This document shows, piece after piece, positions 5,051 to 53,198 of a stretch of DNA of 64,000 nucleotides. The notes beneath the pieces were generated by a model, which ran no database searches, had not been told where the DNA came from, and saw only the letters and a list, made by a program, of their open reading frames with translations. Position 1 is the stretch's first letter. The number at the start of each line of letters is the position of its first letter. Location of the stretch: positions 64,001-128,000 of IMG/VR virus record IMGVR_UViG_3300010163_000006; one strand, written 5' to 3'. Both the position numbers and the translations under genes were made by a program. The stretch is from a virus. Lineage: Duplodnaviria; Caudoviricetes.

Positions 5051-5488
5051 TTAAGATGATTCATCCATGATGTTTTTGAGATGTTGTATTCTTCTTGCAT
5101 TCCAAGATTTCATCACCCAGGGAAGCAGTAAGTCATACCAGTTGTTTATCTCCCTATTAAGATATGAACCATCATCAGGTACATTATCAGATTCAAAGGT
5201 GAAATAGTCTGTTTGGTATTGTTTCTCCTCATTGAATACAGAAAACACACGTGAGTTCCTGAAAGTAATGAGTTTGTTTTTAGGAAACTTATTCTTGATG
5301 AAAATGGAATCCCTTGCACCAAAACCAACCTTGAATACGGAAGGTGTGCAATTGATGATTTCTTCTACTTCGAGAATGGAATAGTACTCTTTCCCTACGC
5401 ATAAATACACCGGAATTATTATTCCATCCGTACCATCGAGTTCGTCTATGATCTTTTTGATCAATTCCTTGTCTTCGATATTGAACAT
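5051..5488 (-). CDS. Hypothetical protein
   Basis: 145-aa ORF with GGAGG RBS. Confidence 0.6.
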   Translation of the reverse strand: MFNIEDKELIKKIIDELDGTDGIIIPVYLCVGKEYYSILEVEEIINCTPSVFKVGFGARDSIFIKNKFPKNKLITFRNSRVFSVFNEEKQYQTDYFTFESDNVPDDGSYLNREINNWYDLLLPWVMKSWNARRIQHLKNIMDESS

Positions 5489-5586
5489 AAAATCAAACCT
5501 CCATAAATATATTTTTAATTTGGAATGAAAGACACGGTAAAATTGTCTTTAGAAATTGTTATTTAAAAGAAAGGAGACTATATAAA

Positions 5587-5862
5587 ATGTATATGTACGG
5601 AGATTTCCAAGAAAATAAAGAAATCAAACTTTCACTTGGTTCTATCAAATATCTTACAAGACAGCTACATGATTTCGTTCGAACTTATGAAAAGGATATA
5701 CTAATTACTGATCCAGAAATCAAAGCTAAGTTTGAAAAATTAAAAGAGATATCTGAATTGTTAGATAGACAAAGATATGACGTACTAATATCAGATCCAT
5801 CTTACGTTATCGATTTTAATGATGATAACGAAGATTATCTTCCATCTTATTATCCTATATAA
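5587..5862 (+). CDS. Hypothetical protein
   Basis: 91-aa ORF with AAGGAG RBS; hairpin at 5868-5893 follows. Confidence 0.6.
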   Translation: MYMYGDFQENKEIKLSLGSIKYLTRQLHDFVRTYEKDILITDPEIKAKFEKLKEISELLDRQRYDVLISDPSYVIDFNDDNEDYLPSYYPI

Positions 5863-5959: not shown

Positions 5960-6295
5960 TTGAATGAAAATGTCGACATGTTAAATGATGAACAGATTTT
6001 TTCTGATGTAGTCGCTTTAATGGAGAAACTTCAGAAAAATCAGGAACTTCAGGATCTTGCAGAAAGAAACGGTCTTGATGTCAAGAACAGTATCCGTCTC
6101 AATAAGACAACACAAGACAATGTTGCAATTGCTACCGTAGCATTGCTGCTTGCTCGTAGAGCGGGGGATCCTAAATATAGGACTCTCACACAAACAGGAC
6201 TTCAGAAGAGAAGACTTAAGGCGGAAATCATTAACGAGTACAAGGGACTCGCTAATCAATTGATACAAAAGTATCGGGGTTCAAAAACCGTTTAA
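5960..6295 (+). CDS. Hypothetical protein
   Basis: AAGGAGGT RBS before a TTG start at 5960, in frame with track ORF 5819-6295. Confidence 0.55.
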   Translation: MNENVDMLNDEQIFSDVVALMEKLQKNQELQDLAERNGLDVKNSIRLNKTTQDNVAIATVALLLARRAGDPKYRTLTQTGLQKRRLKAEIINEYKGLANQLIQKYRGSKTV

Positions 6296-6403
6296 TCCCG
6301 ATATAATAAGCACAACTTTGTAATTTACACAGTAACCAATATTAGGGGGCTCTTATTGTTTATTGATGTGAAAATCCATAATTCGAAAGGAAGTTATACA
6401 CAA

Positions 6404-7417
6404 ATGAAGGTATCAGATGTTTTGTTAGACCTTGCTACTGGTGATGCATCTAAGTACGATGCATATATTCAGGAAGCAGTTGGTCAGGTAAAAGTTTCTG
6501 CAGCTATATACGACGCCGCATATCAGATTGCGGCTCTCAACGATAAAGATCGTGAATCAATTGTTCAGGAGGCTGCGGCCGCAGGTCTTCCTTCTGACAG
6601 AGAACAGTCTATCGATCTTTTGTATGAGGCAACAAGTCGTGAGCTTATCGGTACCGTAAGAAACTTCTACGCTGAAATGGCAATGTTCCTTGAATCAGGA
6701 ACCAGCTCTACTTCACCTATCGCTGCTATCAATAGCATCGCAACAAAGTTCGGTGTTAAAAGCAGAACAAAAATGTCTCCGGATTATGCTGACGAAATCG
6801 CCGAAGCAATTCTTAAAAAGTCCGGTGAACTCAAGGACGGCGCAAAGTTCGTTAAGTCTAAGAAGGCACAGTCAGCTACTACAAACTATCTGAACGGCGT
6901 ATGTCTTCTCGCTAATACATTCGGTCTCAGCACCGAAAAAGTATGTGCGGATCCCATGTTCTCAACAGTAAACCGTGCTCCTCTGTCAACTAATTCAAAA
7001 CATGAAGACGGTGTAGCAGATCTTCCTGCAATGACTGCAACAATTAAGAATGTAAACACCCTTCTCTCAAAGGCATCCATCAAGGAAGCTGACTATACTA
7101 CAACTCCTACAGCTAAGGATGTTTCAATGTATCTCGCATGCGTATATGCAATCCTTGGTATGGCTCATGAATTTAAGATTGATTTGAAAGGTGAAGACGG
7201 CGGTTCTAAGATCGAGAAGTGCATCGAAAAGAAGCTGAGAAAGTGCAAGGACAGCAGAGCCTGCTCCGATGAAGTCAAGGAACTCAATGCGAAGGACAAA
7301 GAGACCGGTAAGAAGCCGATCGTCGAACTCAACGAGTCTCTTTCCAAGACGACCAAGAATCTCTTGGGTGCCTTCAATAATTCTGTATATTCTATCACTG
7401 AAGCTCTCTTCGGATAA
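6404..7417 (+). CDS. Probable virion (internal head) protein
   Basis: ATG 6404 after AAAGGAAG; alanine-rich helical protein with YIQEA and IVQEA motifs. Confidence 0.5.
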   Translation: MKVSDVLLDLATGDASKYDAYIQEAVGQVKVSAAIYDAAYQIAALNDKDRESIVQEAAAAGLPSDREQSIDLLYEATSRELIGTVRNFYAEMAMFLESGTSSTSPIAAINSIATKFGVKSRTKMSPDYADEIAEAILKKSGELKDGAKFVKSKKAQSATTNYLNGVCLLANTFGLSTEKVCADPMFSTVNRAPLSTNSKHEDGVADLPAMTATIKNVNTLLSKASIKEADYTTTPTAKDVSMYLACVYAILGMAHEFKIDLKGEDGGSKIEKCIEKKLRKCKDSRACSDEVKELNAKDKETGKKPIVELNESLSKTTKNLLGAFNNSVYSITEALFG

Positions 7418-14995: not shown

Positions 14996-15973
14996 ATGAA
15001 GAGAATGTTTAAGGTGCATACAGGTCCTCGCCCAGCAGAAGACTGTATCGCTATTCCTGGTTTTACGAATGGCACAATAGTAATTGTTTCAACACTTAAC
15101 ACTGCAGTGAAATTGTGTGTTAACAACACTGGGTTTCTTTTTGCGATTATCGATGAATATCGCCCTATCTGTTATATTAACGACATAAATGCAATTAAAT
15201 TGGGCCTTGATGTAGACGGTGATCATGTTATGATCGACACCGTAAAATATGACCCAACAAAACGCTTAAGCGTTAATTCCATTAAACAAAAAGAAGAGCT
15301 TGAAGATAGATATCTTGAACGTTTAGGACTTGATTCTACCGAATTAATTCCTGAGATTTTCGAAGAGGTTATCAAGCTTGAAAGCGGATACATTTATGCG
15401 ATTGATGGTCATAGTTCTATGAAAATAACATACGAACAGTCAGCATTGGCTCCCGTATCAGACGGTTCAACACACCGTTTCAATTTCATCCTGAAGAAAC
15501 ATAAGTACATTCCATCAAGTGGATACTGTGTTGACAAATATCAAAAGCGTGTGCAGGTTTGGATCAATTATGACCAAATCCAGGAGTTATACAAAGATCC
15601 GTATGAATTCTGGATAAAGTATATTGAACCGAGACCCTTGGGAATATCTGATATATTTGGAGAAGATGCCGAAATAAAGTGCTATGGCGTACTTGCAACC
15701 GTAAAGCAAGATTTACCCGACACAGAGGTTGTACTTCCGGGAATAAATACTGGAGATGTTGTAGTGATATACGATGACGAAGGTCAAACCCATTACAGAG
15801 CCATTGTAAATAATGATAATATAGAGGGTCTTGATGGCGGTCATATGTATATCAGTACAGATCTTGCTTTCAAACTTGGTTATCGTATTATTGGGGATAC
15901 TACTGATTTTAAAATAGCTTTAACTGTCGGAATGAAAGGAGAAATGCCTGATGATAACGAAGGAACAACTTGA
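14996..15973 (+). CDS. Hypothetical protein
   Basis: 325-aa ORF with AGGAG RBS. Confidence 0.65.
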   Translation: MKRMFKVHTGPRPAEDCIAIPGFTNGTIVIVSTLNTAVKLCVNNTGFLFAIIDEYRPICYINDINAIKLGLDVDGDHVMIDTVKYDPTKRLSVNSIKQKEELEDRYLERLGLDSTELIPEIFEEVIKLESGYIYAIDGHSSMKITYEQSALAPVSDGSTHRFNFILKKHKYIPSSGYCVDKYQKRVQVWINYDQIQELYKDPYEFWIKYIEPRPLGISDIFGEDAEIKCYGVLATVKQDLPDTEVVLPGINTGDVVVIYDDEGQTHYRAIVNNDNIEGLDGGHMYISTDLAFKLGYRIIGDTTDFKIALTVGMKGEMPDDNEGTT

Positions 15974-17810
15974 CGAATACATTCGTCTATACCAAGAAGG
16001 AACACCAGCAATTACTGACGAAGAATACGACAGTTTGCTGGAAGAGTATCTTAGGGAACATGGTGAAGACAAAAGGCCGTTCCTCAGATCACAACAGAGC
16101 GATTCTGTGAATGACCTTGTAGGAACTCTTCCAAAAGTTTACGGAACCACAACACCGATGAGAGAAGGTCAGAAAACGTATGAGTCTTGGTTTAATACTA
16201 AGAAGATCGATCCGATGTATGATATCATCATTCAGCCGAAGTTTGATGGTTGTAGTGTTGCTTTGGATGTCACAACGGGGAGATTTTTCACACGTGGGGA
16301 TTATGACAACGGAGAATCAGTTGATGTAACCGAGTTGTTCGAATTCCATAGAAAGAACATGAATCTTCCAAGTGACATTACTGCGATCAAGTTCGAAGCG
16401 ATAATGGCACAAGAGATATTCGAAAGTACTGGATTGAAAGATAAGTATCTCAGACCCCGTGATGCGGTTGCCGGAATAATCACATCACGAAATATAGAGA
16501 TGGCTCAACTGATTACTCTGATTCCATTACGTCAGTATTCTGGTGGACACCAAATGATTCCTGATAAACTTGAGGAAGTATCAATCAAAGCAAAAGTCGA
16601 TGACTTTGATACCATCCAAGGATTCATTAATGACAAACTGTCTGATGGGGCAATCACAAAGTTCTATGATGGGCATTATGCGATCGATGGTGTTGTTGTG
16701 TCTGTTGTTGATGATTCTGGTAAGGTCTTTGTTGATAAAGAGATTGCAATCAAGATCTTGAATAACATTCAGGAGACCAAGATTATCAACATCGAGTATC
16801 AGTATGGAAAGACAGGTAAGATTACTCCCGTTGGAATACTTGAACCCGTTAAGTTTGATAACATCACTGTTGATCATGTTGGTTTATCGACATTAGAACG
16901 AGTCGTTGAGCTCGGCTTACAATACAATGATACGGTACGAATTGTGTACAACATCGTACCATATCTACTATCGACATACCATGATGGAAACTATCCAATC
17001 CCAGTCCCAACAAAATGTCCTATATGTGGGGCAGAACTTAACTACAAAACCCTCAAGACAGTGAGATGCACAAATCCACATTGTAAGGGTTTGAAGATTG
17101 GTATGATCATCAGATACTGTGAGAAGATGAAAATGCTGGGTTTGTCAAAGGGGATAATAACCAAGTTGTTTGATGCGGGGTTGATTGAAACAATTGGGGA
17201 TTTATACAGATTAACACCCGAAAAAATAATGACACTTGATGGATTCAAGGAAAAGAGTGCAACCAACATTTGTAAGACAATATGGAAAGCATCAACCGAT
17301 GTTAGATTAAGCAGATGGTTAGGGGCTTTACCCATAAAAGACATCTCTGACAAAACATGGCAACTCGTCATCGATGCGAAATTCCCAATGAACGAGATGA
17401 AAGCAATGAATGCCGTGAAATACAATATCGAACATGGTACTGTTATGTCGTTCATGACTGAATGTGTTCCTGAATATGTATATGGATTCTCAAAGAACAC
17501 ATACTCATCAATCAAGGAAGGGTTGACATTATATTGGGATGACATCGTGGATATCATTCAATACGTGAACTTCAGATGTACAACTGATCTGACTCGACAT
17601 ATAAAAGGTCGTGTGACATTGACAGGAACTCGGGATGACAAACTTATATCATACCTTACCGAAAAGGGTTATGATGTAAACGACTTCTCCGCAAAAACAA
17701 TTGCATTGGTTATACCTCATCCAACGTATGTATCAAGTAAGGTTGTCAAGGCGAAGAAAAGTGGAATCCCGATATATACAATAGACCAAGCTTATGAAGC
17801 CCTCAAGTGA
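15951..17810 (+). CDS. ligA: NAD-dependent DNA ligase
   Basis: PAITDEEYD, adenylation motif QPKFDG, TRGD, IDGVV, GKTGKITPV, CPICG zinc finger, HhH repeats, BRCT-like C-terminus. Confidence 0.95.
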   Translation: MITKEQLDEYIRLYQEGTPAITDEEYDSLLEEYLREHGEDKRPFLRSQQSDSVNDLVGTLPKVYGTTTPMREGQKTYESWFNTKKIDPMYDIIIQPKFDGCSVALDVTTGRFFTRGDYDNGESVDVTELFEFHRKNMNLPSDITAIKFEAIMAQEIFESTGLKDKYLRPRDAVAGIITSRNIEMAQLITLIPLRQYSGGHQMIPDKLEEVSIKAKVDDFDTIQGFINDKLSDGAITKFYDGHYAIDGVVVSVVDDSGKVFVDKEIAIKILNNIQETKIINIEYQYGKTGKITPVGILEPVKFDNITVDHVGLSTLERVVELGLQYNDTVRIVYNIVPYLLSTYHDGNYPIPVPTKCPICGAELNYKTLKTVRCTNPHCKGLKIGMIIRYCEKMKMLGLSKGIITKLFDAGLIETIGDLYRLTPEKIMTLDGFKEKSATNICKTIWKASTDVRLSRWLGALPIKDISDKTWQLVIDAKFPMNEMKAMNAVKYNIEHGTVMSFMTECVPEYVYGFSKNTYSSIKEGLTLYWDDIVDIIQYVNFRCTTDLTRHIKGRVTLTGTRDDKLISYLTEKGYDVNDFSAKTIALVIPHPTYVSSKVVKAKKSGIPIYTIDQAYEALK

Positions 17811-27954: not shown

Positions 27955-28662
27955 TTAATGGGTTTTCTGTTGTTGTTTCTTTTTCGCACGTTTCTTCTGT
28001 TTTCGCGACCTGGTTTTCTTCCGTCGTTTCTTCTTCGGAGGATTCTTCTGTTGTCCCATACCGTCGTGTTCTACTGCCGTTTCATCTGTTTTGAGATTTT
28101 CTCCATTTGTCTCGGGTTGATCTGCTTCTGTGTTTTCTCCCTCTATTTTATTGATTTCTCTAACGAGGTTATCTTGCGTTTTATAGATAAGAGACATTGC
28201 GTCGTTTTCAATACAATTAAATTGTTTCGTAAGCTCTACTGTAAAACGAGATATCTCAGTATCGGTTAACGGTCGATTGTTCAGTTTAAAAGAACCCAGG
28301 ATGACGGCCTGAATATGTGCCTTCATATCAACCGTGTTAAAATCAGGAGGACTGGGGTCCTCGTTTGACGAATCGTCGGATGACACATCATCATCCTCTG
28401 CATCAGGTGTGTCTGTTGTTGCAGGAGGAGTTGTGATGTTCTCGTTGTTGTTAGCAGCCTTTGCAGCTCTCTTTGCAGCAATTGCTGCAAATCCATGCTT
28501 AGCAGACTTACAAGCTGTTGTTGCCATTGCTGTTGCAGCAATACCAGTGATAGCACTACCAATTCCAACAGCGGCAACGGGGTTCTTCTTGGCTACCTTT
28601 GACGCTTTCTTAACGATTCTCTTAGAGGACTTGTTAATCTTCTTAACAAATGTCTTTTTCAT
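27955..28662 (-). CDS. Hypothetical protein with basic termini, a hydrophobic segment and an acidic linker
   Basis: AAGGAG RBS before ATG 28662; K-rich N- and C-termini. Confidence 0.6.
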   Translation of the reverse strand: MKKTFVKKINKSSKRIVKKASKVAKKNPVAAVGIGSAITGIAATAMATTACKSAKHGFAAIAAKRAAKAANNNENITTPPATTDTPDAEDDDVSSDDSSNEDPSPPDFNTVDMKAHIQAVILGSFKLNNRPLTDTEISRFTVELTKQFNCIENDAMSLIYKTQDNLVREINKIEGENTEADQPETNGENLKTDETAVEHDGMGQQKNPPKKKRRKKTRSRKQKKRAKKKQQQKTH

Positions 28663-28729
28663 AAGTATTCTCCTTCTCCCTCTATATGTATGAGGGTATA
28701 AAATTATTTGAATAATTTGAAACACTATA

Positions 28730-28790
28730 TTTCTTTTTATTCAATATAATAATATATATTTAGAGGATTGAAATAATAGGTGGTAGCATA
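28730..28790 (-). repeat. 61-bp dispersed promoter-region repeat, copy 1
   Basis: tttctttttattca[a/c]tataataatatatatttagaggattgaaataataggtggtagcata; 60/61 identical to 61827-61887. Confidence 0.9.
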
Positions 28791-28834
28791 GAAAATATAC
28801 TGTATAATGGGGAGGGATATCCCTCCCCATTAAA

Positions 28835-29074
28835 TTAGTCTTTCTCAAAAGCCAATGCATCATATTCATTGGCTACATCTACTACGGCATTACTCATTAT
28901 TTTATCATGGGATTCAATAATCCCGTTTATAATTGTTTGTGACTCCGGAGATGATTCCAATAATCTCTTTTTAACACGATCAAGATTACCAGCTTCTTGA
29001 TCGTATATTGTTACAAATAATACAGCAAGATTGTTTATTTCTTCATTTGTTAATTCTGTATTCATACACTTCAC
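28835..29074 (-). CDS. Hypothetical protein
   Basis: 79-aa ORF with AAGAGGTG RBS; start may be 29068. Confidence 0.55.
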   Translation of the reverse strand: MKCMNTELTNEEINNLAVLFVTIYDQEAGNLDRVKKRLLESSPESQTIINGIIESHDKIMSNAVVDVANEYDALAFEKD

Positions 29075-29088
29075 CTCTTTTACTTTAC

Positions 29089-29122
29089 AAAAAATAATCC
29101 CCCAAATATTTGGGGGATTATT
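29089..29122 (-). terminator. Intrinsic terminator closing pentamer array 1
   Basis: aataatcccccaaa-ta-tttgggggattatt hairpin; the plus-strand A-tract is a U-tract on minus. Confidence 0.8.
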
Positions 29123-29130
29123 GTCTCTTC

Positions 29131-29586
29131 ACCAAGCATCACAAGACTGAACCAAGCCTCACCATGACAGAACTAAAATAAACTATACTTAGCTTCACCA
29201 TCACTCTACATGACGTTGCCTCACCAGTACCAAACAACACAATACCTGACAATATCATACCATGACGATACTTGGCTGAACCATCACGTTAATATACCCG
29301 ACACCACTCAACTTTACCAATACACCACCCACTTCAATACACCTGACAACACTCTACCAATACATGACGGGACTGAACGATGCCACACCAACACATTGCA
29401 TCACCCCACGAAACATGACAAAGCCTTACATTCACTTAACTCTGCAACACTATGCGTAACCTTAACGTTACTGTGCAACTCACAGCTATGCCTTTACTGA
29501 ACATCAGGTCATGTAATACTATATACATACCATCACATGACCTGACTACACCACACTTTAATACGCCACACTTCACTTTACCATGG
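29131..29586 (-). ncRNA. Pentamer-periodic array 1, (NN-NGY)n; candidate guide-RNA array
   Basis: Plus strand parses as accaa gcatc acaag actga accaa gcctc ACCATG acaga actaa aataa actat actta gcttc ACCATC actct acatg acgtt gcctc ACCAGT...; begins about 20 nt after the RAMP stop codon and ends at a terminator. Confidence 0.75.
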
Positions 29587-29605
29587 CTGTGATATTTGTG
29601 GCTGA

Positions 29606-30238
29606 TTAGTGTTCTGAAGCATTACCCCCGATTACATTTCCGTCGGCATCAAGCTCTTCCCAGACAAATTTACCCTTTCCACTGTTGCGCCACTGACCCG
29701 TTCCGTGGTAGAATCCATAGTCCAACCATTCACGAACGAGTGTTTCATCTTCATCCACCATACACAGTACGGTGAATTCGTTAGTGGAGCCGACCGGCAC
29801 GGTTTCTGAACATGCCAGTGAAACACGTTCACCCTGTGGTGTGTTGGCTCTTAACGGTCTCTGACACAACGTTATCTCACCATTAACGTTGATGACGGAT
29901 TTGCGTTCCTTGATAAAGATCAGACCGTCTATCTGTTTCTTAAACGCTTTGATCTTTGATGAAGCGGTACCTTTAACCTTTTTGAGGAAACTACAGGTCT
30001 CCTTGAAGTAACCTCGCCACTGATAGTCGTAAATGATCAGATTTCCGTCATCGTCTCTCGGGAATACGGTTGTTCCCTTTTCAACAGTCGGATCAACACC
30101 GACAGATGCTACCTCATCATCGATTGTGGTTGCATCGGGTGACTTCGAAGCGATGTAGCTTCTGTAGATTTCCTGGTCATTGGTTGCTGTGCCAAGCAGC
30201 TCCTCGATAAATGTTACGCGTACTCTGATTTCTTTCAT
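29606..30238 (-). CDS. Stand-alone Cas7/RAMP-superfamily protein
   Basis: N-terminal strand IRVRVTFIEELLG; IYDYQWRGYFKE (Cas7-like iPgss.kG.lr position); ETVPVGS; C-terminal glycine-rich loop GTGQWRNSGKGKF; AAAGGAGGT RBS before ATG 30238. Confidence 0.75.
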   Translation of the reverse strand: MKEIRVRVTFIEELLGTATNDQEIYRSYIASKSPDATTIDDEVASVGVDPTVEKGTTVFPRDDDGNLIIYDYQWRGYFKETCSFLKKVKGTASSKIKAFKKQIDGLIFIKERKSVINVNGEITLCQRPLRANTPQGERVSLACSETVPVGSTNEFTVLCMVDEDETLVREWLDYGFYHGTGQWRNSGKGKFVWEELDADGNVIGGNASEH

Positions 30239-30341
30239 AGAAATCAACCTCCTTTAGATAAATAATAAGTAGTTTATGGATATCTCATTTCTGATATATC
30301 CATAATAATTAAATATATTTCAAAAATAAGAAAAATAGAAA

Positions 30342-30361
30342 GTCCGGGGATAATCCCCGGA
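30342..30361 (-). terminator. Terminator-like hairpin after the 30378 gene
   Basis: ccggggat-a-atccccgg stem with an A-rich left flank. Confidence 0.65.
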
Positions 30362-30377
30362 CATGAAATTCTTCTAT

Positions 30378-30764
30378 TTATGGAGCCGGATATATGACAA
30401 AAGTTTTCAGACCTTTGATCTTGAACCCGCCGTCTTCTGTCGGTTCTCCGAACACTCTTGGGACGGCAATCAATTTGGGATTGTTTGACACAAATTCCTT
30501 GATCATTTTGTCAGATTGGTCAAATTCAACATCTATCCACCCACCAACAAATCCCATATCATAACCAGTTATCACTCCTATGATATCATTTATATCAACT
30601 CTCAAATGTAAAATATCTACTGTTTTACAGTCTGTTCCCTTCACAACCTTCATACCAACCAAACCATGTGTAGATATATGTTTGTATAAGTCTTTAAATG
30701 ATAGACATTCGTTGATTCTGACGGGAATGGTTTTCCTGATCTTCTTAGGGATCCTGACTTTCAT
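30378..30764 (-). CDS. Hypothetical protein between the RAMP gene and array 2
   Basis: AAAGGAG RBS before ATG 30764; track ORF starts at 30785. Confidence 0.6.
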   Translation of the reverse strand: MKVRIPKKIRKTIPVRINECLSFKDLYKHISTHGLVGMKVVKGTDCKTVDILHLRVDINDIIGVITGYDMGFVGGWIDVEFDQSDKMIKEFVSNNPKLIAVPRVFGEPTEDGGFKIKGLKTFVIYPAP

Positions 30765-30790
30765 TAATTTATCACTCCTTTCCATATAAT

Positions 30791-30829
30791 AAAAAATAAC
30801 CCCCGTAAGGTGGGAGGAGGTTATTTTTC
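30791..30829 (-). terminator. Terminator-like hairpin closing pentamer array 2
   Basis: aaaaaataacc-ccc...ggaggttattttt imperfect stem flanked by A/T tracts. Confidence 0.6.
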
Positions 30830-30845
30830 TTTAAGATATGTCGTT

Positions 30846-32372
30846 ACCATTACTCTACAAGACCCAACTTTGATGAACCATTACTGAACCAAACCGCGCT
30901 TTGCCTTACAACACTTGGCATCGCCGCACCGTAACACCGCTATACTGGGCTGAACTATGCCTTTACGCAACAGCACTATTCGACGCTACACCATAACTTC
31001 ACAATACCCACGCGGTACAATGCGTTACAGGACATAGCCTTTACTGGTACCATTCGACACCTTACCTGCACATGACATCGCCACCTATCACAACACAACA
31101 CCAATACAGAACAATACCGAACGCCACACTACCTTTACGATACATACGAACACGAAGCTCAATATTACTATACTTAACATTACCCGTTACGTGACCATGC
31201 GGCACCTGACCTTACCAAAACATTACTCTACGCCTCCTGGCTTTACCCAAACATTACGCTCGCAGCATTACTGCACCATCACAGCACCATACGTAAACTG
31301 ACTATACATTACCGATACAATACGAATCAGTACGGAACATCACGGAACCCATTACGTAACGTAACGCCACTTGACCGAACTGCACCCTCACAAAACTATC
31401 CCATACTGTACCATTAATGTACACTGCGTGACTAAACACGACTCTACCTGTACTTTACTATGAGCAACGTATCTCCGCTCCGCTTTACCTTTACTAAGCA
31501 TTACCTGGTATTGCTTAACCTTGCCTATACGATACCAAGCGTGGCATTTCTTCACCGCACCGTTTACTCTACATTACTCGACTTCACTCCAACATTACCC
31601 TCACATGGCATCATAAGACCACACTTTACCTTTACGACACCTCACAGAACAGGACCAAACCATGCCTGAACATTACCTTTAGATCACAATACGCGACGAT
31701 ACTTCACCTTACCATTACCAGAGAAAACGTCACCATACCGATACCGCAACCATGCTTCACCTTACTTAACCCTTACTTGGCTTGGCGGAACAAAACTATA
31801 CTATACCGTTACATAATCATACCGCACCCGGCCTTACCCATAACATCACAAAACTTTTCTGTACACTTCCTTTGCGGAAACTATGCCCGACACAGCATCA
31901 CGACACTATACCGGAACGCCACGTCACTCTACGGTACACCACCATGCTATACCAGCACAGTGCATTACTTGACATTGCTTTACCTTACCAATGCTGTACA
32001 TCACAATACCATTACGAAACAATACCAGACTGCAACTCACCGCGCATCACCTATGCTAAACATTACGTTCAAGACCCCGCTTTACTGAACCTTGACAAAA
32101 CCAAACAGTGCCTCACCGAAGCATTACTTGACATTGCTTGACCATACTTCACATCACCTTTACTGAACGTTATGAGACAAAGCGTCACCTCACAGCACCA
32201 TTACTTGGCAAAACTTCACGTGACACGACGATACTTCACCTTACCATTACCCAACATGACAATATGACACCATGCGTTGCCGTTAGCCATACATAACACA
32301 ACATGCCCTCACAACGCAATACCTTTACAGAACATAAAAGCTCAGCACTACACTTCACCGATACGTCACATA
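30846..32372 (-). ncRNA. Pentamer-periodic array 2, (NN-NGY)n; candidate guide-RNA array
   Basis: Plus strand ACCATT actct acaag accca acttt gatga ACCATT actga accaa accgc gcttt gcctt acaac acttg gcatc gccgc ACCGTA...; about 1.5 kb, starting right after the stop codon of the 32373 gene. Confidence 0.75.
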
Positions 32373-33677
32373 TTATTGTTGAGATAAAATGTCATAATAT
32401 CGAGAGACGTCAAATCCCAGTTTGTTTAGCTTGTCTATAAATTCCTTATAAGACTTCCGACCCAGATTTCGTATCTTCATTATATCTTCAGGAGCAGTAG
32501 ATAATATATCACCAATTGTACGGATTCCTCCGCATTTCAGGGAATTGAAAGTCCTGACACTTAAGTCGATTAAATCTATATCCGTATCCTCTGTAAATTC
32601 AGGTATCTTCCCATCAACATCGAGAGAAATTTCTTGTGTTCGCAGTACCCCATACTTAAGAATCATCAACGCTCTTTTGTCCGCGATAATAGCGTTCGAT
32701 ATTTCTTCAACTGATTGTCTGGTATCAATACCCAAAATATGGATCAGAAATTCGACAGTCTCGACGTCACAAAGGTTGTCATCGAGATATCTCATGTTGT
32801 ATATGTTTTCATACACACGTCTACCCAAGCGTGTAGAATTCTTTTCAACAAGATGCCGCAGCTTGTTTTTGTGTTCTCCATAAACGATAGTCCTTAGTGC
32901 TCGGGCTTCTATTTGTCTTATTCTATCCGGAGTAAGATTGTATTCATTTGCTATCTCTGTCAGAGTCATGTGATCAATAAACCTCTTGTCAAGTATATCA
33001 ATATCTCTAATTTGTCTAATTGATCTTTGAATAAAGAGCTCGATATCTGTAGTATCTGTTCCGATAATTTCAAGATCATCTGAAAAGAAATCCATACCGT
33101 CTACTGCTGCAGCGATTAAGTTCCATGGATAGAGACTATATTGCACGGGGTATATGTTGGATATCATCTTTTCCATCCGTGTGAAATAAGGATTCTCTTT
33201 GTAATGGTAGATCTTTGCACAAGCGATTATGTTCGCAAGTTCACGCACGGTCTTGTAGATGTGGTTGTTATTTATCACCATCTCAAGTAGGTCTGGTTCT
33301 AACCATAATCGTGAGATTGTGACGTCGGGAGAAAACTTCGATAAACGGATATCCTCAGTTTTCCAGAACTTTGATTTCAGCTTATCGGTAGGGATACTAA
33401 CCCTTTGGGATACTAATGTCATTCCTGTATGTTCACTAATTGATTTCGGAGAAACTCCTAATATATTCCTATAACCAAAAGCGATTAATGTGTCGTCACC
33501 GATGGTTGACAAAAGATCGTCAATCTTTTTCATGAGTTTATCCTCATTGATTTCTTCAATATCATTCAGAGACAATCCCGGGAGAAATCCCTTCTCGATC
33601 AATCTCGTTATGATTGTTTTCACATCGACACCGGCTTCGAATACGTGGTTGTTAATAACTAATTCGCTAAACTTCAT
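32373..33677 (-). CDS. Sigma70 region-4 HTH + RNA polymerase alpha-CTD fusion protein (putative transcription regulator)
   Basis: ILDKRFIDHMTLTEIANEYNLTPDRIRQIEARALR (sigma region 4) and IDLIDLSVRTFNSLKCGGIRTIGDI...IMKIRNLGRKSYKEF (alpha-CTD). Confidence 0.85.
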   Translation of the reverse strand: MKFSELVINNHVFEAGVDVKTIITRLIEKGFLPGLSLNDIEEINEDKLMKKIDDLLSTIGDDTLIAFGYRNILGVSPKSISEHTGMTLVSQRVSIPTDKLKSKFWKTEDIRLSKFSPDVTISRLWLEPDLLEMVINNNHIYKTVRELANIIACAKIYHYKENPYFTRMEKMISNIYPVQYSLYPWNLIAAAVDGMDFFSDDLEIIGTDTTDIELFIQRSIRQIRDIDILDKRFIDHMTLTEIANEYNLTPDRIRQIEARALRTIVYGEHKNKLRHLVEKNSTRLGRRVYENIYNMRYLDDNLCDVETVEFLIHILGIDTRQSVEEISNAIIADKRALMILKYGVLRTQEISLDVDGKIPEFTEDTDIDLIDLSVRTFNSLKCGGIRTIGDILSTAPEDIMKIRNLGRKSYKEFIDKLNKLGFDVSRYYDILSQQ

Positions 33678-34395: not shown

Positions 34396-34473
34396 TGGTG
34401 GGATATGCTGGATTCGAACCAGCGTCATAACGCCGTGCACAACGTATACTTTTCCCCGCTAAAATAATATCCC
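34396..34473 (-). tRNA. Degenerate tRNA, anticodon undetermined
   Basis: Perfect acceptor GGGATAT/ATATCCC, T-arm GCTGG-TTCGAAT-CCAGC and CCA, but irregular anticodon arm. Confidence 0.55.
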
Positions 34474-36424: not shown

Positions 36425-37819
36425 TTAAGAAGACATAAGTCCAAGACAGATGGTCGACCAATCCATCAGAGGTAATTCGATCTTTTCGGTAACGTAGTTA
36501 GTTACACAAGAGAAGTGGAACTTTTCGAAATGCTGAACGATTCCATCTTCTTTACATCCAAGGAATAAAGTATTCAGTTGGTCTCCATCAAAGTCCGCAT
36601 TAAAACCGGGAAGTGGTTCTGGAGGTAAACTGATCGTATCATCATTTACCTTGAAACGACGTATCTTTGCAATCTCAATAGAAGCAAAGTTGTTTGTCGG
36701 TTCTCTAAGGATCATGATCCATTGTTCTTTGTCGAGTATCTCTTGAAGGATATCGACTACCTCGGGATGAATCTTATAATCTCTGACATACAGATATGCC
36801 TGTTCAAGAGTGAAGTTATATCTGACAGATAAGATGTGTGTTATCTTGTACTGGAATGCGGTAATACACATTGGCAATGGCAGATCAACTTCATCGACGT
36901 TCAATGATATATCGAGGGTGATTACCGCACGACCAGAGAATGAAAACGTACCACCAACAATCTCTGATCTTACGAAACCATCCTTCTTTGAAACCTCATT
37001 CGTTATCAGATGCTCAGCAGCTTCAACCCAATAATTCTGAATAAAGTTCAATGCCTGAATCGTTTCGATTGGTAAAGCCATGTCTTTCAACTTGCATTGA
37101 ATCGAAACGATTTGTGAAAACCATTTATTGATCTTCGGGTAGAACATCGTCTCTGATGTCTTAGATACAGGACGGAATGCTGTTGAGTAGATCGGGATCT
37201 TCGAAGTGAACACAGCTTCTTTCTCTTGGATCAATGTCGCAAGTTCCTCTGTTGATTTACCACAAGCGGTCAATACCTCTTCGAATCTTTGGTAAAATAC
37301 ATCGTGTCCAAGACCTTCGTAAATCTGTTTCGACTTGGGTATTTTCTTCCTGATATATGCGATGTCGTTTTGTGCAATACGACCTGTTTTTCGGTTCTTT
37401 TTGTTCTCTGCAAAGTTCGTATCATTCTCATTATAAGGAACAGAGAAATCGGCCTTATAGTCTCCGAGAATATATTTCAACATATTTACAGACAATACTC
37501 TCTTGAGCATTGAATAATAGATTGGTGATATAACTTTGTGTGGAGATATATCAACCCATCCAGTATATTTAAAGTTCAATGAGCGAAGAGTGATCTCAGA
37601 GTTACAACGTGGGCATACTCGGCCAATGATATCTTGACCGATGAATGCACCACAGTCGCATCTGTACTCAACGTCCATGAACTTGGAAGAATTGATCAGT
37701 TGATCAACATTTACTGGAGCATACATATCTTCCTCTTCGTTGATTAAAAACCCATTGTGGGTAATCATGTCGATGATATACTCGTTCTCCAGATTTATTC
37801 TTTCAAGTGTGACGCCCAT
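36425..37819 (-). CDS. Phage multisubunit RNA polymerase beta' subunit, N-terminal half (probably non-virion RNAP)
   Basis: CDCG...CPRC zinc site, IPIYSTAFRP, FSGRAVIT, ILREPT, catalytic FNADFDGDQL near the C-terminus (split beta'). Confidence 0.92.
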   Translation of the reverse strand: MGVTLERINLENEYIIDMITHNGFLINEEEDMYAPVNVDQLINSSKFMDVEYRCDCGAFIGQDIIGRVCPRCNSEITLRSLNFKYTGWVDISPHKVISPIYYSMLKRVLSVNMLKYILGDYKADFSVPYNENDTNFAENKKNRKTGRIAQNDIAYIRKKIPKSKQIYEGLGHDVFYQRFEEVLTACGKSTEELATLIQEKEAVFTSKIPIYSTAFRPVSKTSETMFYPKINKWFSQIVSIQCKLKDMALPIETIQALNFIQNYWVEAAEHLITNEVSKKDGFVRSEIVGGTFSFSGRAVITLDISLNVDEVDLPLPMCITAFQYKITHILSVRYNFTLEQAYLYVRDYKIHPEVVDILQEILDKEQWIMILREPTNNFASIEIAKIRRFKVNDDTISLPPEPLPGFNADFDGDQLNTLFLGCKEDGIVQHFEKFHFSCVTNYVTEKIELPLMDWSTICLGLMSS

Positions 37820-41347: not shown

Positions 41348-43276
41348 TTATGGGAATACCATTCTCGAAGGTCTGAAGCCTCCGGGAACATCCGCAACAT
41401 ACACATCAAATGCATTAAACAATTGACGGAATGGTATCAGCAATTTATCAGCCGCATAATCGATATCGATTACCGGACGAATCCATTCTGGTATATCATG
41501 ATAATGTTCAGGTATACATATATAAGGATCCGTTTTCTCATCCGCATTATCAACTAATGACAACCTCAGTATCTCTGATGTTTTGGAGAAATCATTTGCA
41601 TGTTGCTTTAATAGATCAAATGATAACGGAATTACCCTTACACGGTCCATTGGAAGCATTTCTTCATCATGCATTATATTATTCCAAACAATCGCACCAC
41701 GCATCTGTGCTGGTAATACTTTTGTGGGATCATATGCACTGATGTCCTTGATAGACAAAACCTTGTAATATGAAGGATCCGAACCTATCTCATTGATAAG
41801 TCGATTCCTCAGATTGTTGTATTCATCTAATACACCCGAAATGGATATCTGATCAGCTGTTAGTATATATTTATCGTATATATCGATCATTATCGGTTCA
41901 AGGAATTCTGCCGAATCTCGTTTCTTAAATGACAAACCTGATACGGCAATATCATGTGGGTTACGAGGTTTTCCTTCCTGAACGAACATAGATGAAGCAT
42001 ACATCTTCTTCGCAATAAGAGCCATTGATAAGAATGCGAACTCATTCTTGAACACGAACTTCGATCTATAGTATTCATCATTTATATTACAATACATAGC
42101 AATGTAACCTACCATTGTCGGTATGATATGTTCAATAAATAAACGCATACCAAAAGCAGATGCAACAAGACATGATGACAGGAATGATCCAACATATGAT
42201 TGGAAGTCATTTATATAACTTGCGAACTGAACCATGAGTGAATCTGTATCTGTAACACATACAATGACTCTTTCCATATTAGCCGCTCTGATTTCACAAT
42301 CATTCGGTATAAAAGGATAAACACAATTGTCAACAATAACCTTGCTGACATACTCTATCAATGATACTATCTCCTCGGGTGCTTTAACACCGTAACCCCA
42401 TCTATGAAGAGTCTCTTCTGATATATCATTGATATCGAATTGATTCTCCTTGAGATAATCCGATATTGTCTTTATCTCATTTACGAGATATTTTCTCATG
42501 ATAAGTCTCGGATTAAACGCCAACATGAGCTTCGTCAATTCCTCATTTGACAATGTGGACAAATACATTTGAAGAGTTTCTATATCTCTTCCTGTGATGT
42601 TGTTTGTCCTTGATAATAACCATTTGAGGACATCATTCACACGATAAGTATCGTTAATCAATACCCTATCTTCACGAGTATCCTCAAGTACGATAAAGAT
42701 CATGTCAAACAATTCATTCACGTTATTTAACTTCGCCCATTGGTTGTTATTCCCGGAAATGAACTCCAAACAGCAGATTAAGCTCGTCGTTATATTCTTT
42801 GCACTTCCGGTGGTAGCCGGGGGAATATAACACGAAAAGAATGGTGACAGTCGGGTGCCAGACCCACCGTAGTCAGCATTCATAATGACCTTAATAGACA
42901 TCTGGGCAACATTTGCATTCGTGTATTGGATCGTACCTTTCCCATATGTGTACATTTCCTTCTTTTTCTTTTTACGGTCTTTTTGTAATTTTTCCAACAT
43001 TTTAACAGTAGGAGCCAAATACTCCTCATGTTGTTTGAAAAACGTACCGTTACCTGAGATGATGGGATTGCGTTGCCCTATCCAGTCAAACACATCGATC
43101 ATTGATGTGTTTTTCAATTCCTGTGTGATGTTATTATGCATCGTACACGGAATGTTACGAATTCTTTCATTCGTAAGTTCATCGATGAGTGATCGTACTA
43201 AATTCAGATTAGCATTAGGATGTGTTTTCATATACATCTCAACAATCTGATTCTGATATCTTTCTACGACATTCAT
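41348..43276 (-). CDS. Family-B DNA polymerase, polymerase-domain subunit
   Basis: Motif B QMSIKVIMNADYG, motif C VTDTDSL, KKMYA, VSGLSFKK; no exonuclease motifs seen. Confidence 0.85.
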   Translation of the reverse strand: MNVVERYQNQIVEMYMKTHPNANLNLVRSLIDELTNERIRNIPCTMHNNITQELKNTSMIDVFDWIGQRNPIISGNGTFFKQHEEYLAPTVKMLEKLQKDRKKKKKEMYTYGKGTIQYTNANVAQMSIKVIMNADYGGSGTRLSPFFSCYIPPATTGSAKNITTSLICCLEFISGNNNQWAKLNNVNELFDMIFIVLEDTREDRVLINDTYRVNDVLKWLLSRTNNITGRDIETLQMYLSTLSNEELTKLMLAFNPRLIMRKYLVNEIKTISDYLKENQFDINDISEETLHRWGYGVKAPEEIVSLIEYVSKVIVDNCVYPFIPNDCEIRAANMERVIVCVTDTDSLMVQFASYINDFQSYVGSFLSSCLVASAFGMRLFIEHIIPTMVGYIAMYCNINDEYYRSKFVFKNEFAFLSMALIAKKMYASSMFVQEGKPRNPHDIAVSGLSFKKRDSAEFLEPIMIDIYDKYILTADQISISGVLDEYNNLRNRLINEIGSDPSYYKVLSIKDISAYDPTKVLPAQMRGAIVWNNIMHDEEMLPMDRVRVIPLSFDLLKQHANDFSKTSEILRLSLVDNADEKTDPYICIPEHYHDIPEWIRPVIDIDYAADKLLIPFRQLFNAFDVYVADVPGGFRPSRMVFP

Positions 43277-48926: not shown

Positions 48927-51900
48927 ATGTTTTACCAAGAAGCTGCAGTAGATCTTTCACGCGGTACGAATTTCTTACCTCAAAGGACGAGATACCGTTT
49001 ACCGATGCAGAAGGCTGATACTTCGATATATTTGTTGTCAAACTCATTCGAATATGATATCGAAATGATAAAAAATATGCCAACCCCTAAATTGGATTAT
49101 AAGAATATTATAATTCCGTATCGTGTAATGGATAAGATCGGTGTTAAACCATTTCGATACAATAGTTCCATGAACGACTTCAATCGCAAAGTTTCTTATA
49201 TTCTCAAAAAGAAACTTATGCCGAATGTTAATCCATTGAGATTCCCTTATCCGAAAACAATCAAGGATAATCTTTACATATCAATGTCAGAGATTATCCC
49301 GATGGTCACACCATTCATGAGAACGTTTTCGAAACAATACATCCAAGAACACATCTTTGATTTGTTTAACAAAGTGATGGGCTTCTTTAATTTTTCAAAA
49401 AATAAGATTCTCATTATCGACATCCGGCATTACAAGATCTATCAAACATTAACTCTCGATACTTTCATGTCAGACCTGATAAATGCATTATTGACTGCAT
49501 ATATCATGAATGATCCCGCTAAGATCAAGAAGCTTGATTATGTAATAATCTTTAGAGCCCCTGATGCTGATTACAAGTTTGATTTATCGTTGTTCGAGAA
49601 ACGCGATGTTCAACGGATGAAAGCTATGTTACGAAAAATAGGAGTACCTTCTGAAATGACTGCAACTACATCCGAAGAAGCGGGTGAAAGTTTTGATTCA
49701 TTTACGAAGAACTCCGAACCAGAATTACCGGATCTTGCTAATATTAATGACGATGCTGATGATTCGGAAGATAAACCTGAGGTAGACGAAGAGGTTAAAA
49801 ACCTTCAAAAAGTGAATAACAATGAGACTAAATCAATCAAAGACACGATCAGTCAATTGTCTACTCAGTATGGTAAGGTAAAAAACGATGACAAAGCACC
49901 TGATGAAAATCGGGAATTATATAATGTCAAAACAATGGATATCAACGCCCAGTTGATAAAACGGATTAATCCTGCAACCGAAGTTGTTTCGAATTATAAG
50001 AAACTCTCTGATTCAATGGTTGCTGGTGGTTCTAATACCGTTGAAAAAGACATAATGAAAGATGCTGCAAAGACGATGTCTTCGGAAGTTGAACCGTCGA
50101 ATGTAAAAACTGTTATGAATGCAACATCATCAGCACGAGAGCGTGAGATACGAGAAAAACTTGGTCAGGTCAAATTGAACAATGTAACATTCAACACATT
50201 GACATCAATTACAGATGTTCCTAAACCTAAGCCGGTCAGACCAAGAAATCTCACAACCACAAATCCAGGAGCTCTTCATGGTTCATCGTTTGCACACATT
50301 GCAGAAGAGTACGAAGACAAACTACTCGACAGAGACATAGTTGCAACATTCATGAATTTCTCCAAACTTCCGGATGGTTTCTATGTTACCAACGTTGAAG
50401 TGACAGACATTTCAACGGTAACAAGTTTGATGAATAACTGGAAGGTTACACTTAAAAACAAAGAATCTGATCGTCAATCAATTATAAACATCAGAGTCCC
50501 CCGAGTTATCAATGGTCGATTCTATAACAACGGTGTTTGGTACAACATCGGAAAACAAGACTTCCCAATACCGATTCTGAAAATCAACAAGAAAACTGTT
50601 ATGTTGACAAGTAACTATAACAAAATTACCTGCACAAGATACGACACAAGATCGCTTGTTGACCTTGGTATGTTGGTTAAAGTAATCGATAAATTGACTG
50701 ATGATAATGGAAAAAATAAATATGTAAGAGTTGGTAATTCTTCCAATACCAATTCCCGATATGTATCGACAATTGAGTACGATGAGTATGCAAGGAAGTG
50801 GGTTCATTTCATTAACAAGGAAGCTAATTTACAAATATATTTTAACCGTTCACAATGTGACAAGGCATATTCGTTTGTTACTGTACAACCAAATGAGTTC
50901 TGTTGTGGAATGATAAATCAAGTTCCTATTATCCTGAATACCGATACTGGATTAACAAGAGACGGTAACACTATAACGGATACCATATTAAAGACCTTAC
51001 CGGAAGACATAAGGAATGCATATCGTAAACAGAAACCAGGTAAGATGTCAATGTATTCTGAAATCACTATAGGAGTTACAATTCCCCTTGGAGTTGCTAT
51101 TGCTGCATGGGAAGGAATGGGTTCTTTATTAAAGAAGAGCGGTGCAAAATATCAGTATGTTGATAAGAACTTTGATGACATACGATACTTCGTTATGCCA
51201 TTTAAAGATAAGAATCTTGCGATCGAAAGCTCCGTTGCGAACCAGTTGATCTTCAACGGTTTCTATCGAATTAATACGAAATCATACATGGCATCGGAAT
51301 TCGAAACACCGATTATGAATTCAAATTCGATCTATGTTGATATATTCAACCAGTTATTCTTCAAGCAATATTCACAGCTTACAACGTTTATCACATATTA
51401 TAATTTCTTCGTTGATGCAATAACGGCGGATGTATGTGATCACTATCATATTCCAAATGACATTGCCGGAATGTTGATATATGCCTCTAATCTGTTGGCT
51501 GATAACAATCATACTTCAGAAAACAATGCTGCATTGTACAGACTACGCTCATCGGAAATTATTCCGGCCATCATACATTACAGATTAGCGTTTGCAATAT
51601 CAAAATACAACAATAGTGTCGGATCCAAAACAAGAGGGCATTCAATCGCATTCAACCCGAATGAAGTAATGAATGAATTGTTAGCGGTTAATAATGTAGA
51701 GCCGATGTCTTCATTAAATCCTATAAATGAATTACATGCCAGAGAGAATGTAACAAAGAAAGGCTTCAAGGGAGTTAACTCAGATCGTTCATACACACAG
51801 GACAAACGTACCTATGAGGATTCCATGATTGGAAAGATGGCATTATCATCTCCTAATAATGGAACCGTAGGCGTTACACGTCAGCTCGTTGCGGATCCAA

Positions 51901-53198
51901 AGATTGAATCTGTTCGTGGTTATACATCAACAGATGGCCCTGAATCCGATTTCAATGATCTCCAATTGGCATCTTTCTCGGAATTACTCACACCGGGAAC
52001 AGTCACCAGAGACGATGCTATCCGAACTGCAATCGCAACATCCCAAACATCGCACATCGTATCAACCGAAGGCGCTCAACCAGTATTGGTATCCAATGGT
52101 GTTGATGAGATTGTTCCTGCGTATTTGACGGAGGAATTTTCGTATGTTGCGAGAGAAGATGGTGAAGTAATCGACATGAATGAGGATTACATCATTATCC
52201 AATACAAGAGTGGAAAAAAGAAAGCGATTAATATCAATCACAAACAATCATTCAATTCTGGCTCAGGTTTCTTCGTTGATAACAAACTCACATCTAATGT
52301 TGAGATGGGTGACAAGTTCAAAGAAGGAGATATCCTTGCATATCATGAGAAGTATTTCTCAAAGGATTGTGATGGTATTGTCAGAATGAACATAGGACCT
52401 CTTGCAAAGGTTGCATTCGCTGGATTGTATTCAACATATGAAGATGCTGGTCTTATCACAACCAAGATGTCTAAGAAACTTGGCACAAAGTATTCAATGA
52501 AACAACAAATCAAAATCAATGCAATGGATGATGTAGAAAGTATCGTCAAGATTGGTGATGAGGTTGAGGTCGGTGACCCATTAGTTGTATTCGGCATGGG
52601 TGGTACAGGAGATAAGGCAGTAGACAATTTCCTTAAATCATTTGGTAAGGATTCATCTGATGATGTCTTAAACAAAGCAAAGAGGGTAATTAAAGCCAAG
52701 AATGCAGGAACTGTTGTTGACGTCAAAATGTATACGACCAAGAGTATGGATAAACTGTCACCATCATTATTCGATATCTTTGATAAGTATTTCAAAGATA
52801 ACGTTAAACGTCGTAAAATATTGGACAAACATGACAAAACTAATTCCGTGTATAAAATGGATACGTTGTATTCATTACCAACAGAACCTCTCAAGGGTAC
52901 AACGATCAAGGGTATAACATGTGATGTGTTGGTTGAGATATTCATCGAACATGGTGATGAAGCATCTATTGGTGACAAGCTGGCCATCTATGGTGCATCA
53001 AAACAGGTTCTTTCGGAAGTAATACCTGAAGGACTGGAACCGTACTCCGAAACACGACCCGAAGAAGAAGTAAGTATCTTCGTTGCTCCGAGCTGTATCT
53101 TGAAGAGAATGATCCCATCACTCATTATCACTGCCTCGGCGAACAAAGTACTTGTCGAGCTAAAACGCAAAGTGAAGGAACTGTGGGAACAAGGATAA
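48927..53198 (+). CDS. Phage multisubunit RNA polymerase beta-like subunit (probably virion RNAP)
   Basis: beta motifs LNPINELH, SSPNNGTVG, DDAIRTAIATSQTSH, YEDAGLIT, IGDKLAIYGASKQV; long N-terminal extension beginning MFYQEA. Confidence 0.88.
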   Translation: MFYQEAAVDLSRGTNFLPQRTRYRLPMQKADTSIYLLSNSFEYDIEMIKNMPTPKLDYKNIIIPYRVMDKIGVKPFRYNSSMNDFNRKVSYILKKKLMPNVNPLRFPYPKTIKDNLYISMSEIIPMVTPFMRTFSKQYIQEHIFDLFNKVMGFFNFSKNKILIIDIRHYKIYQTLTLDTFMSDLINALLTAYIMNDPAKIKKLDYVIIFRAPDADYKFDLSLFEKRDVQRMKAMLRKIGVPSEMTATTSEEAGESFDSFTKNSEPELPDLANINDDADDSEDKPEVDEEVKNLQKVNNNETKSIKDTISQLSTQYGKVKNDDKAPDENRELYNVKTMDINAQLIKRINPATEVVSNYKKLSDSMVAGGSNTVEKDIMKDAAKTMSSEVEPSNVKTVMNATSSAREREIREKLGQVKLNNVTFNTLTSITDVPKPKPVRPRNLTTTNPGALHGSSFAHIAEEYEDKLLDRDIVATFMNFSKLPDGFYVTNVEVTDISTVTSLMNNWKVTLKNKESDRQSIINIRVPRVINGRFYNNGVWYNIGKQDFPIPILKINKKTVMLTSNYNKITCTRYDTRSLVDLGMLVKVIDKLTDDNGKNKYVRVGNSSNTNSRYVSTIEYDEYARKWVHFINKEANLQIYFNRSQCDKAYSFVTVQPNEFCCGMINQVPIILNTDTGLTRDGNTITDTILKTLPEDIRNAYRKQKPGKMSMYSEITIGVTIPLGVAIAAWEGMGSLLKKSGAKYQYVDKNFDDIRYFVMPFKDKNLAIESSVANQLIFNGFYRINTKSYMASEFETPIMNSNSIYVDIFNQLFFKQYSQLTTFITYYNFFVDAITADVCDHYHIPNDIAGMLIYASNLLADNNHTSENNAALYRLRSSEIIPAIIHYRLAFAISKYNNSVGSKTRGHSIAFNPNEVMNELLAVNNVEPMSSLNPINELHARENVTKKGFKGVNSDRSYTQDKRTYEDSMIGKMALSSPNNGTVGVTRQLVADPKIESVRGYTSTDGPESDFNDLQLASFSELLTPGTVTRDDAIRTAIATSQTSHIVSTEGAQPVLVSNGVDEIVPAYLTEEFSYVAREDGEVIDMNEDYIIIQYKSGKKKAININHKQSFNSGSGFFVDNKLTSNVEMGDKFKEGDILAYHEKYFSKDCDGIVRMNIGPLAKVAFAGLYSTYEDAGLITTKMSKKLGTKYSMKQQIKINAMDDVESIVKIGDEVEVGDPLVVFGMGGTGDKAVDNFLKSFGKDSSDDVLNKAKRVIKAKNAGTVVDVKMYTTKSMDKLSPSLFDIFDKYFKDNVKRRKILDKHDKTNSVYKMDTLYSLPTEPLKGTTIKGITCDVLVEIFIEHGDEASIGDKLAIYGASKQVLSEVIPEGLEPYSETRPEEEVSIFVAPSCILKRMIPSLIITASANKVLVELKRKVKELWEQG

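Follow-up and report, generated by a model that had tools for sequence, protein, structure and literature searches.

What does the tract of five-nucleotide units that follows a small RAMP gene in this phage genome encode? The tract occupies 29131-29586 of the window, by which we mean the whole 64,000-nt stretch of Caudoviricetes DNA analysed here, and a framework for it is offered by VIPR, an RNA-guided system for silencing DNA that is related to CRISPR and was reported for the first time in 2026 (bioRxiv 10.64898/2026.04.26.720920). According to that preprint, Vipr proteins are phage-borne minimal RAMPs that were found by their fold and occur without CRISPR arrays, and vrRNAs composed of YNNGG pentamers flank their genes. 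The variable NN bases pair with double-stranded DNA, every third target base being skipped, and rival phages and satellites are silenced (10.64898/2026.04.26.720920). The methods of the same preprint name NNNGG, YNNNG and NNNNG as alternative repeats (also in the legend of fig. S18), and tail-less 'staggered' arrays are named as well, which are not among the layouts confirmed by RNA sequencing. In the filament structure, one protomer sits on each repeat of a helical assembly, and contacts to G1, G2 and Y3 are given (bioRxiv 10.64898/2026.04.26.720927). A further survey reports 99 period-5 clusters, 21 of them with non-canonical motifs such as WGT/NN, beside Vipr-like folds (bioRxiv 10.64898/2026.10.21.760802). 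An accessory vap gene beside vipr is described as typical, not universal. As set out below, the tract, which we call Array 1, very probably encodes the guide RNAs (vrRNAs) of a VIPR system that is carried by the phage and uses a non-canonical repeat.

A phased array of G-Y-N-N-N units

The plus strand of 29131-29586 is poor in G (48 G in 456 bases), and the genes around the tract in the window lie on the minus strand. Base autocorrelation of the tract peaks at lags 5, 10, 26, 31 and 36, with z values against shuffled sequences of +7.9, +5.4, +6.9, +5.6 and +5.5, while in the two flanking genes, which served as controls, no lag exceeds +3.0. The Fourier peak of the tract lies at 5.1-5.25 nt. 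When the complete 155,671-bp contig was scanned, the pentamer signal appeared in two places only, 29001-29700 and 30701-32500; the second of these holds Array 2, which is described in the last section.

We divided 29125-29600 on the minus strand into units by dynamic programming tuned toward G-Y, and the same parse was applied to shuffled sequence as a control. The result is 92 units (78 pentamers, 12 hexamers and 2 tetramers). Array 1, as delimited by autocorrelation, Fourier analysis and this parse, spans 29128-29581 on the minus strand and consists of about 89 phased G-Y-N-N-N units, putative vrRNA guides, in good agreement with the approximately 90 pentamers counted in an earlier sequence-only reading. 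In its pentamers, G occupies position 1 in 86% (1.22 bits), T (77%) or C (19%) occupies position 2 (1.04 bits), and positions 3, 4 and 5 are nearly free (0.06, 0.23 and 0.11 bits). The per-position information content of the phased pentamers confirms the pattern of two fixed and three free positions put forward in that reading, and the RC that it had placed at positions 1-2 of the plus strand is the reverse complement of the minus-strand G-Y. G-Y stands at the start of 88% of the units, compared to 39% (sd 4%) in shuffled sequence under the same parse, and successive G-Y sites are spaced by 5 in 48 of 93 cases. The base preceding G-Y is G in 19-20% of the units; the array does not have the canonical YNNGG form, in which both G are conserved, and its G-Y-N-N-N is the published YNNNG repeat form.

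Other identities were considered for the tract. A coding or recoded gene was rejected, as the period is 5 and not 3 and the tract contains no ORF; the NNN triplets of the units show no consistent depletion of stop codons. A tRNA or another known RNA family was rejected as the identity of Array 1: Rfam finds no family in the arrays at gathering or E-value thresholds, and there are no hammerhead ribozymes between the units. A Rho-loading site on the plus strand was also rejected, the fixed dinucleotide being RC and not YC. A blastn search of the region against 50,697 phage records returned no match.

Layout of the locus

On the minus strand, the order of elements is upstream terminator, inverted repeat, ribosome-binding site, vipr, spacer, Array 1 and terminator. 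The terminator of the preceding gene (30342-30362, minus strand) marks the upstream limit of the predicted vipr-Array 1 transcription unit. Between it and the ribosome-binding site lies a perfect 10-bp inverted repeat (TTATGGATAT, 12 nt, ATATCCATAA; 30274-30305), which is a candidate operator or 5'-UTR/leader hairpin of the unit. The ribosome-binding site AGGAGG (30248-30253, minus strand), as read from the sequence, is located 9 nt before an ATG at 30238, which is likely the start of vipr in place of the TTG at 30247 given in the ORF list. The gene (29606-30238, minus strand) encodes a 210-aa minimal Cas7-like RAMP (P0001). Array 1 begins 18-24 nt past its stop codon, and no terminator is found in this spacer. 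The array is closed by a strong intrinsic terminator at 29122-29093 (minus strand), with a 13-pair stem, a 4-nt loop, a U-rich tail and perfect 15-nt arms. The order of gene, array and terminator that had been proposed before is therefore present, and co-transcription of vipr and Array 1 on the minus strand would be its simplest reading, as in the analogous locus of phage SUSP1. The locus is compact, with approximately 1.25 kb from the promoter region to the terminator, and would make a convenient construct for the study of array processing and base reading.

The gene product resembles Cas7-family RAMPs

Pfam, PHROGs and PADLOC give no match for the 210-aa product. In metagenomes, it has 5,026 homologues at E <= 0.001, which come mostly from gut and rumen Clostridia. 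A profile built from 28 homologues matches the G-rich loop of Csm4 (E 0.0019) and type VII Cas7 (E 0.044) in the PDB. The AlphaFold2 model of the product (pLDDT 84, pTM 0.79) matches Cas7-family RAMPs only, with Csm3 found by Foldseek at E 6e-6. The profile and structure matches together uphold the identification of the gene as a RAMP. No second copy of vipr is present in the 155.7-kb genome.

The published Vipr proteins are the PSI-BLAST family of X1U2U4, and our profile comparison used the Vipr of SUSP1. The pentamer signal led us to the SUSP1 locus (KT454805.2), where the 195-aa Vipr is encoded at 28474-29061 on the minus strand, and we verified that its residues H17, K33, E71, M72, R138, C173, D177, W178 and R179 are numbered as published. 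Between the family profile and SUSP1 Vipr, hhalign detects a weak, marginal similarity (E 0.043, probability 1.2%, 98 columns). In this weak alignment, the G-loop GVGDWRPRFGRF is aligned with GTGQWRNSGKGKF and the N-terminal strands also line up. The two proteins share the Cas7-like fold and the G-loop form GxGxWR...GxF, and the residues W178 and R179, which hold G2 and Y3 in SUSP1, are kept here as W183 and R184, with W and R invariant in the family. The residues H17 and D177, which read G1 in SUSP1, correspond in the same weak alignment to T17 and Q182, and the loss of the canonical first G of GGY would fit these two substitutions.

Gene and array are conserved as a unit in related genomes

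We compared 87 homologue loci (49-80% identity) drawn from IMG/VR, metagenome assemblies and GTDB genomes. Most of them lie on gut or rumen Clostridia contigs, with genes for an integrase, a cI-like repressor, SSB and a recombinase nearby. A tract of the same 5.2-nt rhythm, with G>C on the strand of the gene, abuts the gene in 86 of the 87 loci, and in the exceptional one the sequence stops 34 bases past the gene. In 67 loci the array is confined to the downstream side and in 11 to the upstream side, and 6 loci have it on both sides. A downstream array is present in 73 of 85 loci, without exception on the strand that codes for the gene, and the median gap between stop codon and array is approximately 0. 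The logos are alike, with G-C-N-N-N in a 65% GC phage and G-T-N-N-N in AT-rich phages. A crude scan places terminators at the array ends of 11 of 70 loci, compared to 5 of 70 controls.

The content of the arrays changes rapidly. In phages with a 71-80% identical protein, no segment of the arrays can be aligned to Array 1 or Array 2. Where arrays of relatives can be aligned, the mismatch is 0 at position 1, 0.14 at position 2 and 0.37, 0.375 and 0.42 at positions 3, 4 and 5, rates that come from a small sample and from BLAST alignments partly driven by the common G-Y. Four contigs with an 80%-identical protein carry identical arrays, and they are therefore uninformative on the substitution pattern. 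Gene and array together form the conserved unit; the content of the array is hypervariable and its grammar is kept. As for an accessory vap gene, none of the genes adjoining vipr recurs in any of the 87 relatives, and clustering of the ORFs in the relatives reveals no gene at a fixed position beside vipr.

These comparisons bear on the idea that the tract is a degenerate simple repeat without function, which would account for its repetitive look and for nothing beyond it. Conservation is position-specific, and the same grammar and punctuation recur in approximately 100 arrays from genomes of very different GC content, so the comparative data contradict this idea and leave it next to no credit. 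The earlier statement that the tract is not a decaying microsatellite holds likewise: two positions are kept, three are near maximal entropy, and the grammar recurs from AT-rich relatives to those of 65% GC.

Separately, in one 111-kb relative (L007), a second 214-aa gene lies directly upstream of the vipr homologue (5189-5833 and 6001-6645), and it could be a tandem paralogue of the homologue.

Six-base units divide the array into modules

The 11-12 six-base units of Array 1, mostly GTNNNG followed by GT, delimit modules of 4-8 units. Such a unit, ending in an extra G, recurs approximately every 6 units; of those in this genome, 92% have G as the extra base and 100% are followed by a unit that begins with G. 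The consensus leans to G-Y-A-A-W-G, then G-Y-R, and approximately 1,500 six-base units in the relatives have the same signature. The mode of module size is 6 units in this genome and in the relatives, and the modules abut, with one extra base between them. By analogy with published vrRNAs, the six-base units most likely delimit separate short guides of approximately 6 units.

An internal hairpin at 29504-29545 (minus strand) is formed by a 19-nt-arm inverted repeat of 84% complementarity, which appears in both the MFE and the centroid fold, and it divides Array 1 into a 5' block of approximately 11 units and a main block. The 5' arm of the hairpin consists of four in-phase units, but its 3' arm breaks the grammar, so that of the pentamer array claimed for 29131-29586 the rhythm proves real and this arm falls outside it. 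Hairpins are not enriched in the arrays of the family relative to unit-shuffled controls. A structured 3' tail of approximately 40 nt, as on type II vrRNAs, is not found in Array 1; its structures are the internal hairpin and the terminator only.

The punctuation also explains the mean period of 5.15-5.2 bp, with peaks at 5, 10, 15/16, 21, 26, 31 and 36. A period of 5.2 bp is half a helical turn, and it could come from a feature of double-stranded DNA, such as a phased protein-binding or bending region. Here, the value of 5.2 arises from discrete pentamers plus the signature six-base unit and not from a smooth phase. The tract is moreover strand-asymmetric, always in favour of the coding strand of the RAMP gene, in 86 of 87 loci, a stop codon and a terminator form its boundaries, and it is linked to an RNA-binding fold, all of which makes a DNA feature highly improbable.

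Searches for targets

We searched the phage's own genome with sliding 8-unit windows under seven pairing rules (positions 3-4, 4-5 or 3-5; target steps 2-5), and the best matches equal those of unit-shuffled guides, giving no self-target; the absence of self-targets in the own genome has been published for other VIPRs too. For exact spaced seeds from approximately 11,600 units of 98 arrays, this genome and 0.9 Mb of related loci yielded no more matches than reversed or shuffled controls did, and none of the matches extended. Two long modules, in which 20-22 bases are specified, had 0 matches in exact scans of IMG/VR, and the 18-base versions of these modules each hit 2 independent sequences, which we judge to be approximately the chance level; other modules did not converge on the contigs that were hit. 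The dinucleotide after G-Y resembles codon positions 1-2 in composition, which is what one would expect from wobble skipping as published. This likeness to codon phase is equal in unit-shuffled controls, and the signal is therefore one of composition only.

These results can be set against two readings that keep the ribonucleoprotein and change what it does. In one, the array belongs to a VIPR-like ribonucleoprotein with a code or target unlike the published one, which might use three pairing bases, an RNA target or one filament over the whole array. The three positions after G-Y are about equally free and have similar mismatch rates, the modules are short, the residues that would read the first G differ from those of SUSP1, and staggered arrays are without experimental confirmation in 10.64898/2026.04.26.720920, all of which would suit such a code. 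On the other side, no skip rule rises above the shuffled controls, so that no rule is favoured, and the codon-like dinucleotide, though of the kind that wobble skipping predicts, is a matter of composition. We consider a different code or target unlikely. In the other reading, the array would be a decoy or sponge RNA that titrates a Vipr, its own or that of a rival, and guides nothing to DNA. Satellite-encoded solo vrRNAs are known to redirect the VIPR of a phage (bioRxiv 10.64898/2026.10.15.759431), and the searches of the own genome, related loci and IMG/VR found no target, as a sponge would lead one to expect. However, in nearly all relatives the array lies in cis directly behind its own vipr, and its content is highly diverse, as in specific guides and unlike a generic sponge; we regard titration as quite improbable. 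Guide function in a VIPR system is the reading that we retain.

Probable assignment to the VIPR systems

The assignment of Array 1 to VIPR is made because a phased G-Y-N-N-N array, a Cas7-like RAMP fold and a conserved linkage of gene and array coincide with the published description of Vipr proteins and their pentamers. It is also made because content is hypervariable while the grammar is kept, and because no self-target, no CRISPR-like repeat and no Rfam family is found in the searches of this study. Array 1 is most likely a new example of the already known, recently described VIPR and not a new kind of system. What counts against the VIPR reading is that no vap gene was found, that there is no structured tail of approximately 40 nt, that the similarity to SUSP1 is weak and that the modules are short; under a rule of two bases per unit, modules of 5-8 units provide only 10-16 specified bases.

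The closest published counterparts are YNNNG/staggered VIPR and WGT/NN arrays. In these as here, the gene of a minimal phage RAMP is accompanied on its own strand by an array of pentamers that lacks a tail. A single G and the pyrimidine after it are invariant in the units and the other bases vary, and there is no CRISPR array and no other cas gene. The arrays described here differ from published YNNNG/staggered VIPR in being very long, with 89 plus approximately 299 units for one vipr, and in that no vap was found. The +1 punctuation may correspond to the published 'staggered, 1-nt overlapping' layout. The type II VIPR of SUSP1 shares with the present locus a gene and pentamer repeats on the same strand and in the same order. 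Its units are strict GGY/NN, with 9-16 per vrRNA, whereas here the first G is free and the modules have 4-8 units; each SUSP1 vrRNA has a pseudoknot tail of approximately 40 nt, whereas here the modules end in a six-base unit, and the SUSP1 locus has vap1, whereas here no vap was found. Class 1 CRISPR systems stand further away. Their Cas7 proteins (Csm3, Cmr4, type VII Cas7 and Csf2) have a 6-nt period on the contiguous spacer of a crRNA, and the systems have repeat-spacer arrays and Cas5, Cas6 and large-subunit partners; by contrast, the present locus has a 5-nt period and holds fixed bases within the guide itself, and it lacks repeats, spacers and further cas genes. CRISPR-like repeated k-mers are absent from the whole 155.7-kb genome, and Pfam, PHROGs and PADLOC detect no cas family among the genes neighbouring vipr, to which that search was confined.

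By analogy with SUSP1, the mechanism would be as follows. From the joint minus-strand transcript of vipr and array, Vipr protomers would bind one pentamer each and form a filament, in which pockets of the protein would take up the flipped-out fixed G and Y and leave the variable bases that follow exposed. These variable bases may then pair, with gaps in the register, with double-stranded DNA that belongs to a rival mobile element or to the host, and this pairing would silence transcription.

The +1 punctuation, the short abutting modules and the three free positions per unit go beyond what has been characterised experimentally, and the latter two, together with the altered G1-reading residues, are still of some interest. 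If the third free base also pairs, or if the modules share one long filament, the rule would differ from the published one of two bases in five with one skipped. It is possible, if somewhat doubtful, that this gut and rumen phage family runs a VIPR variant of its own code, with short abutting guides of approximately 6 units closed by a conserved G-Y-A-A-W-G unit in place of a structured tail. The protein family is very large, and the tail-less, +1-punctuated type of array is known so far from sequence data. VIPR itself has been proposed as an ancestor-like relative of CRISPR effectors.

Array 2 and the genomic setting

Array 2 (30826-32372, minus strand) contains approximately 299 units of the same grammar and is closed by a terminator-like hairpin at 30800-30817 (minus strand). 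Since the genome has a single vipr copy, Array 2 is presumably served by the same Vipr protein as Array 1, and this 156-kb phage with its own RNA polymerase would then use one minimal vipr for close to 390 pentamer units in two arrays. Within Array 2, a 26-nt segment, made up of one six-base unit plus the four units that open a module, is exactly duplicated (32226-32251 and 31694-31719, minus strand), and a 19-nt duplicate is also present; these duplicates suggest that modules may duplicate and then diverge. A hairpin with 11-nt arms (TAAGCATTACC / GGTATTGCTTA; 31495-31517) lies near the middle of Array 2 and is analogous to the internal hairpin of Array 1.

The array lies behind a sigma-like gene (32373-33677, minus strand), whose stop codon directly precedes it. 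The 434-aa product is an unusual fusion of sigma-70 region 4 (residues 227-262) and an RNA polymerase alpha C-terminal domain (residues 364-418). A 26%-identical relative of this protein is encoded approximately 1.3 kb downstream of vipr in one related locus (L083), and a Sigma70_r2 protein is encoded upstream of vipr in another (L003). The fusion might act as a partner that binds DNA, or it might be no more than a transcription factor of the phage. The 135-aa gene that separates Array 2 from vipr (30378-30785, minus strand) is an ORFan without a homologue among 5.8 billion clustered proteins; its model in the ESM Atlas is similar to the fold of the prohead protease (S77), at a TM score of 0.63-0.66 by query.

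The genome is that of a large phage which encodes a multisubunit RNA polymerase of its own. PHROGs matches identify split RNA polymerase beta-like subunits (36425-37819 on the minus strand and 48927-53198 on the plus strand), a DNA polymerase (41348-43276) and an NAD-dependent ligase (15951-17810), and these phage genes, carried with the arrays on a single 155,671-bp piece, show that the locus resides on a mobile element. The phage tRNA cluster includes a tRNA at 34396-34473 (minus strand; Rfam tRNA score 43.6 bits) to which ARAGORN assigns a four-base anticodon (tgca) in an 8-nt loop.
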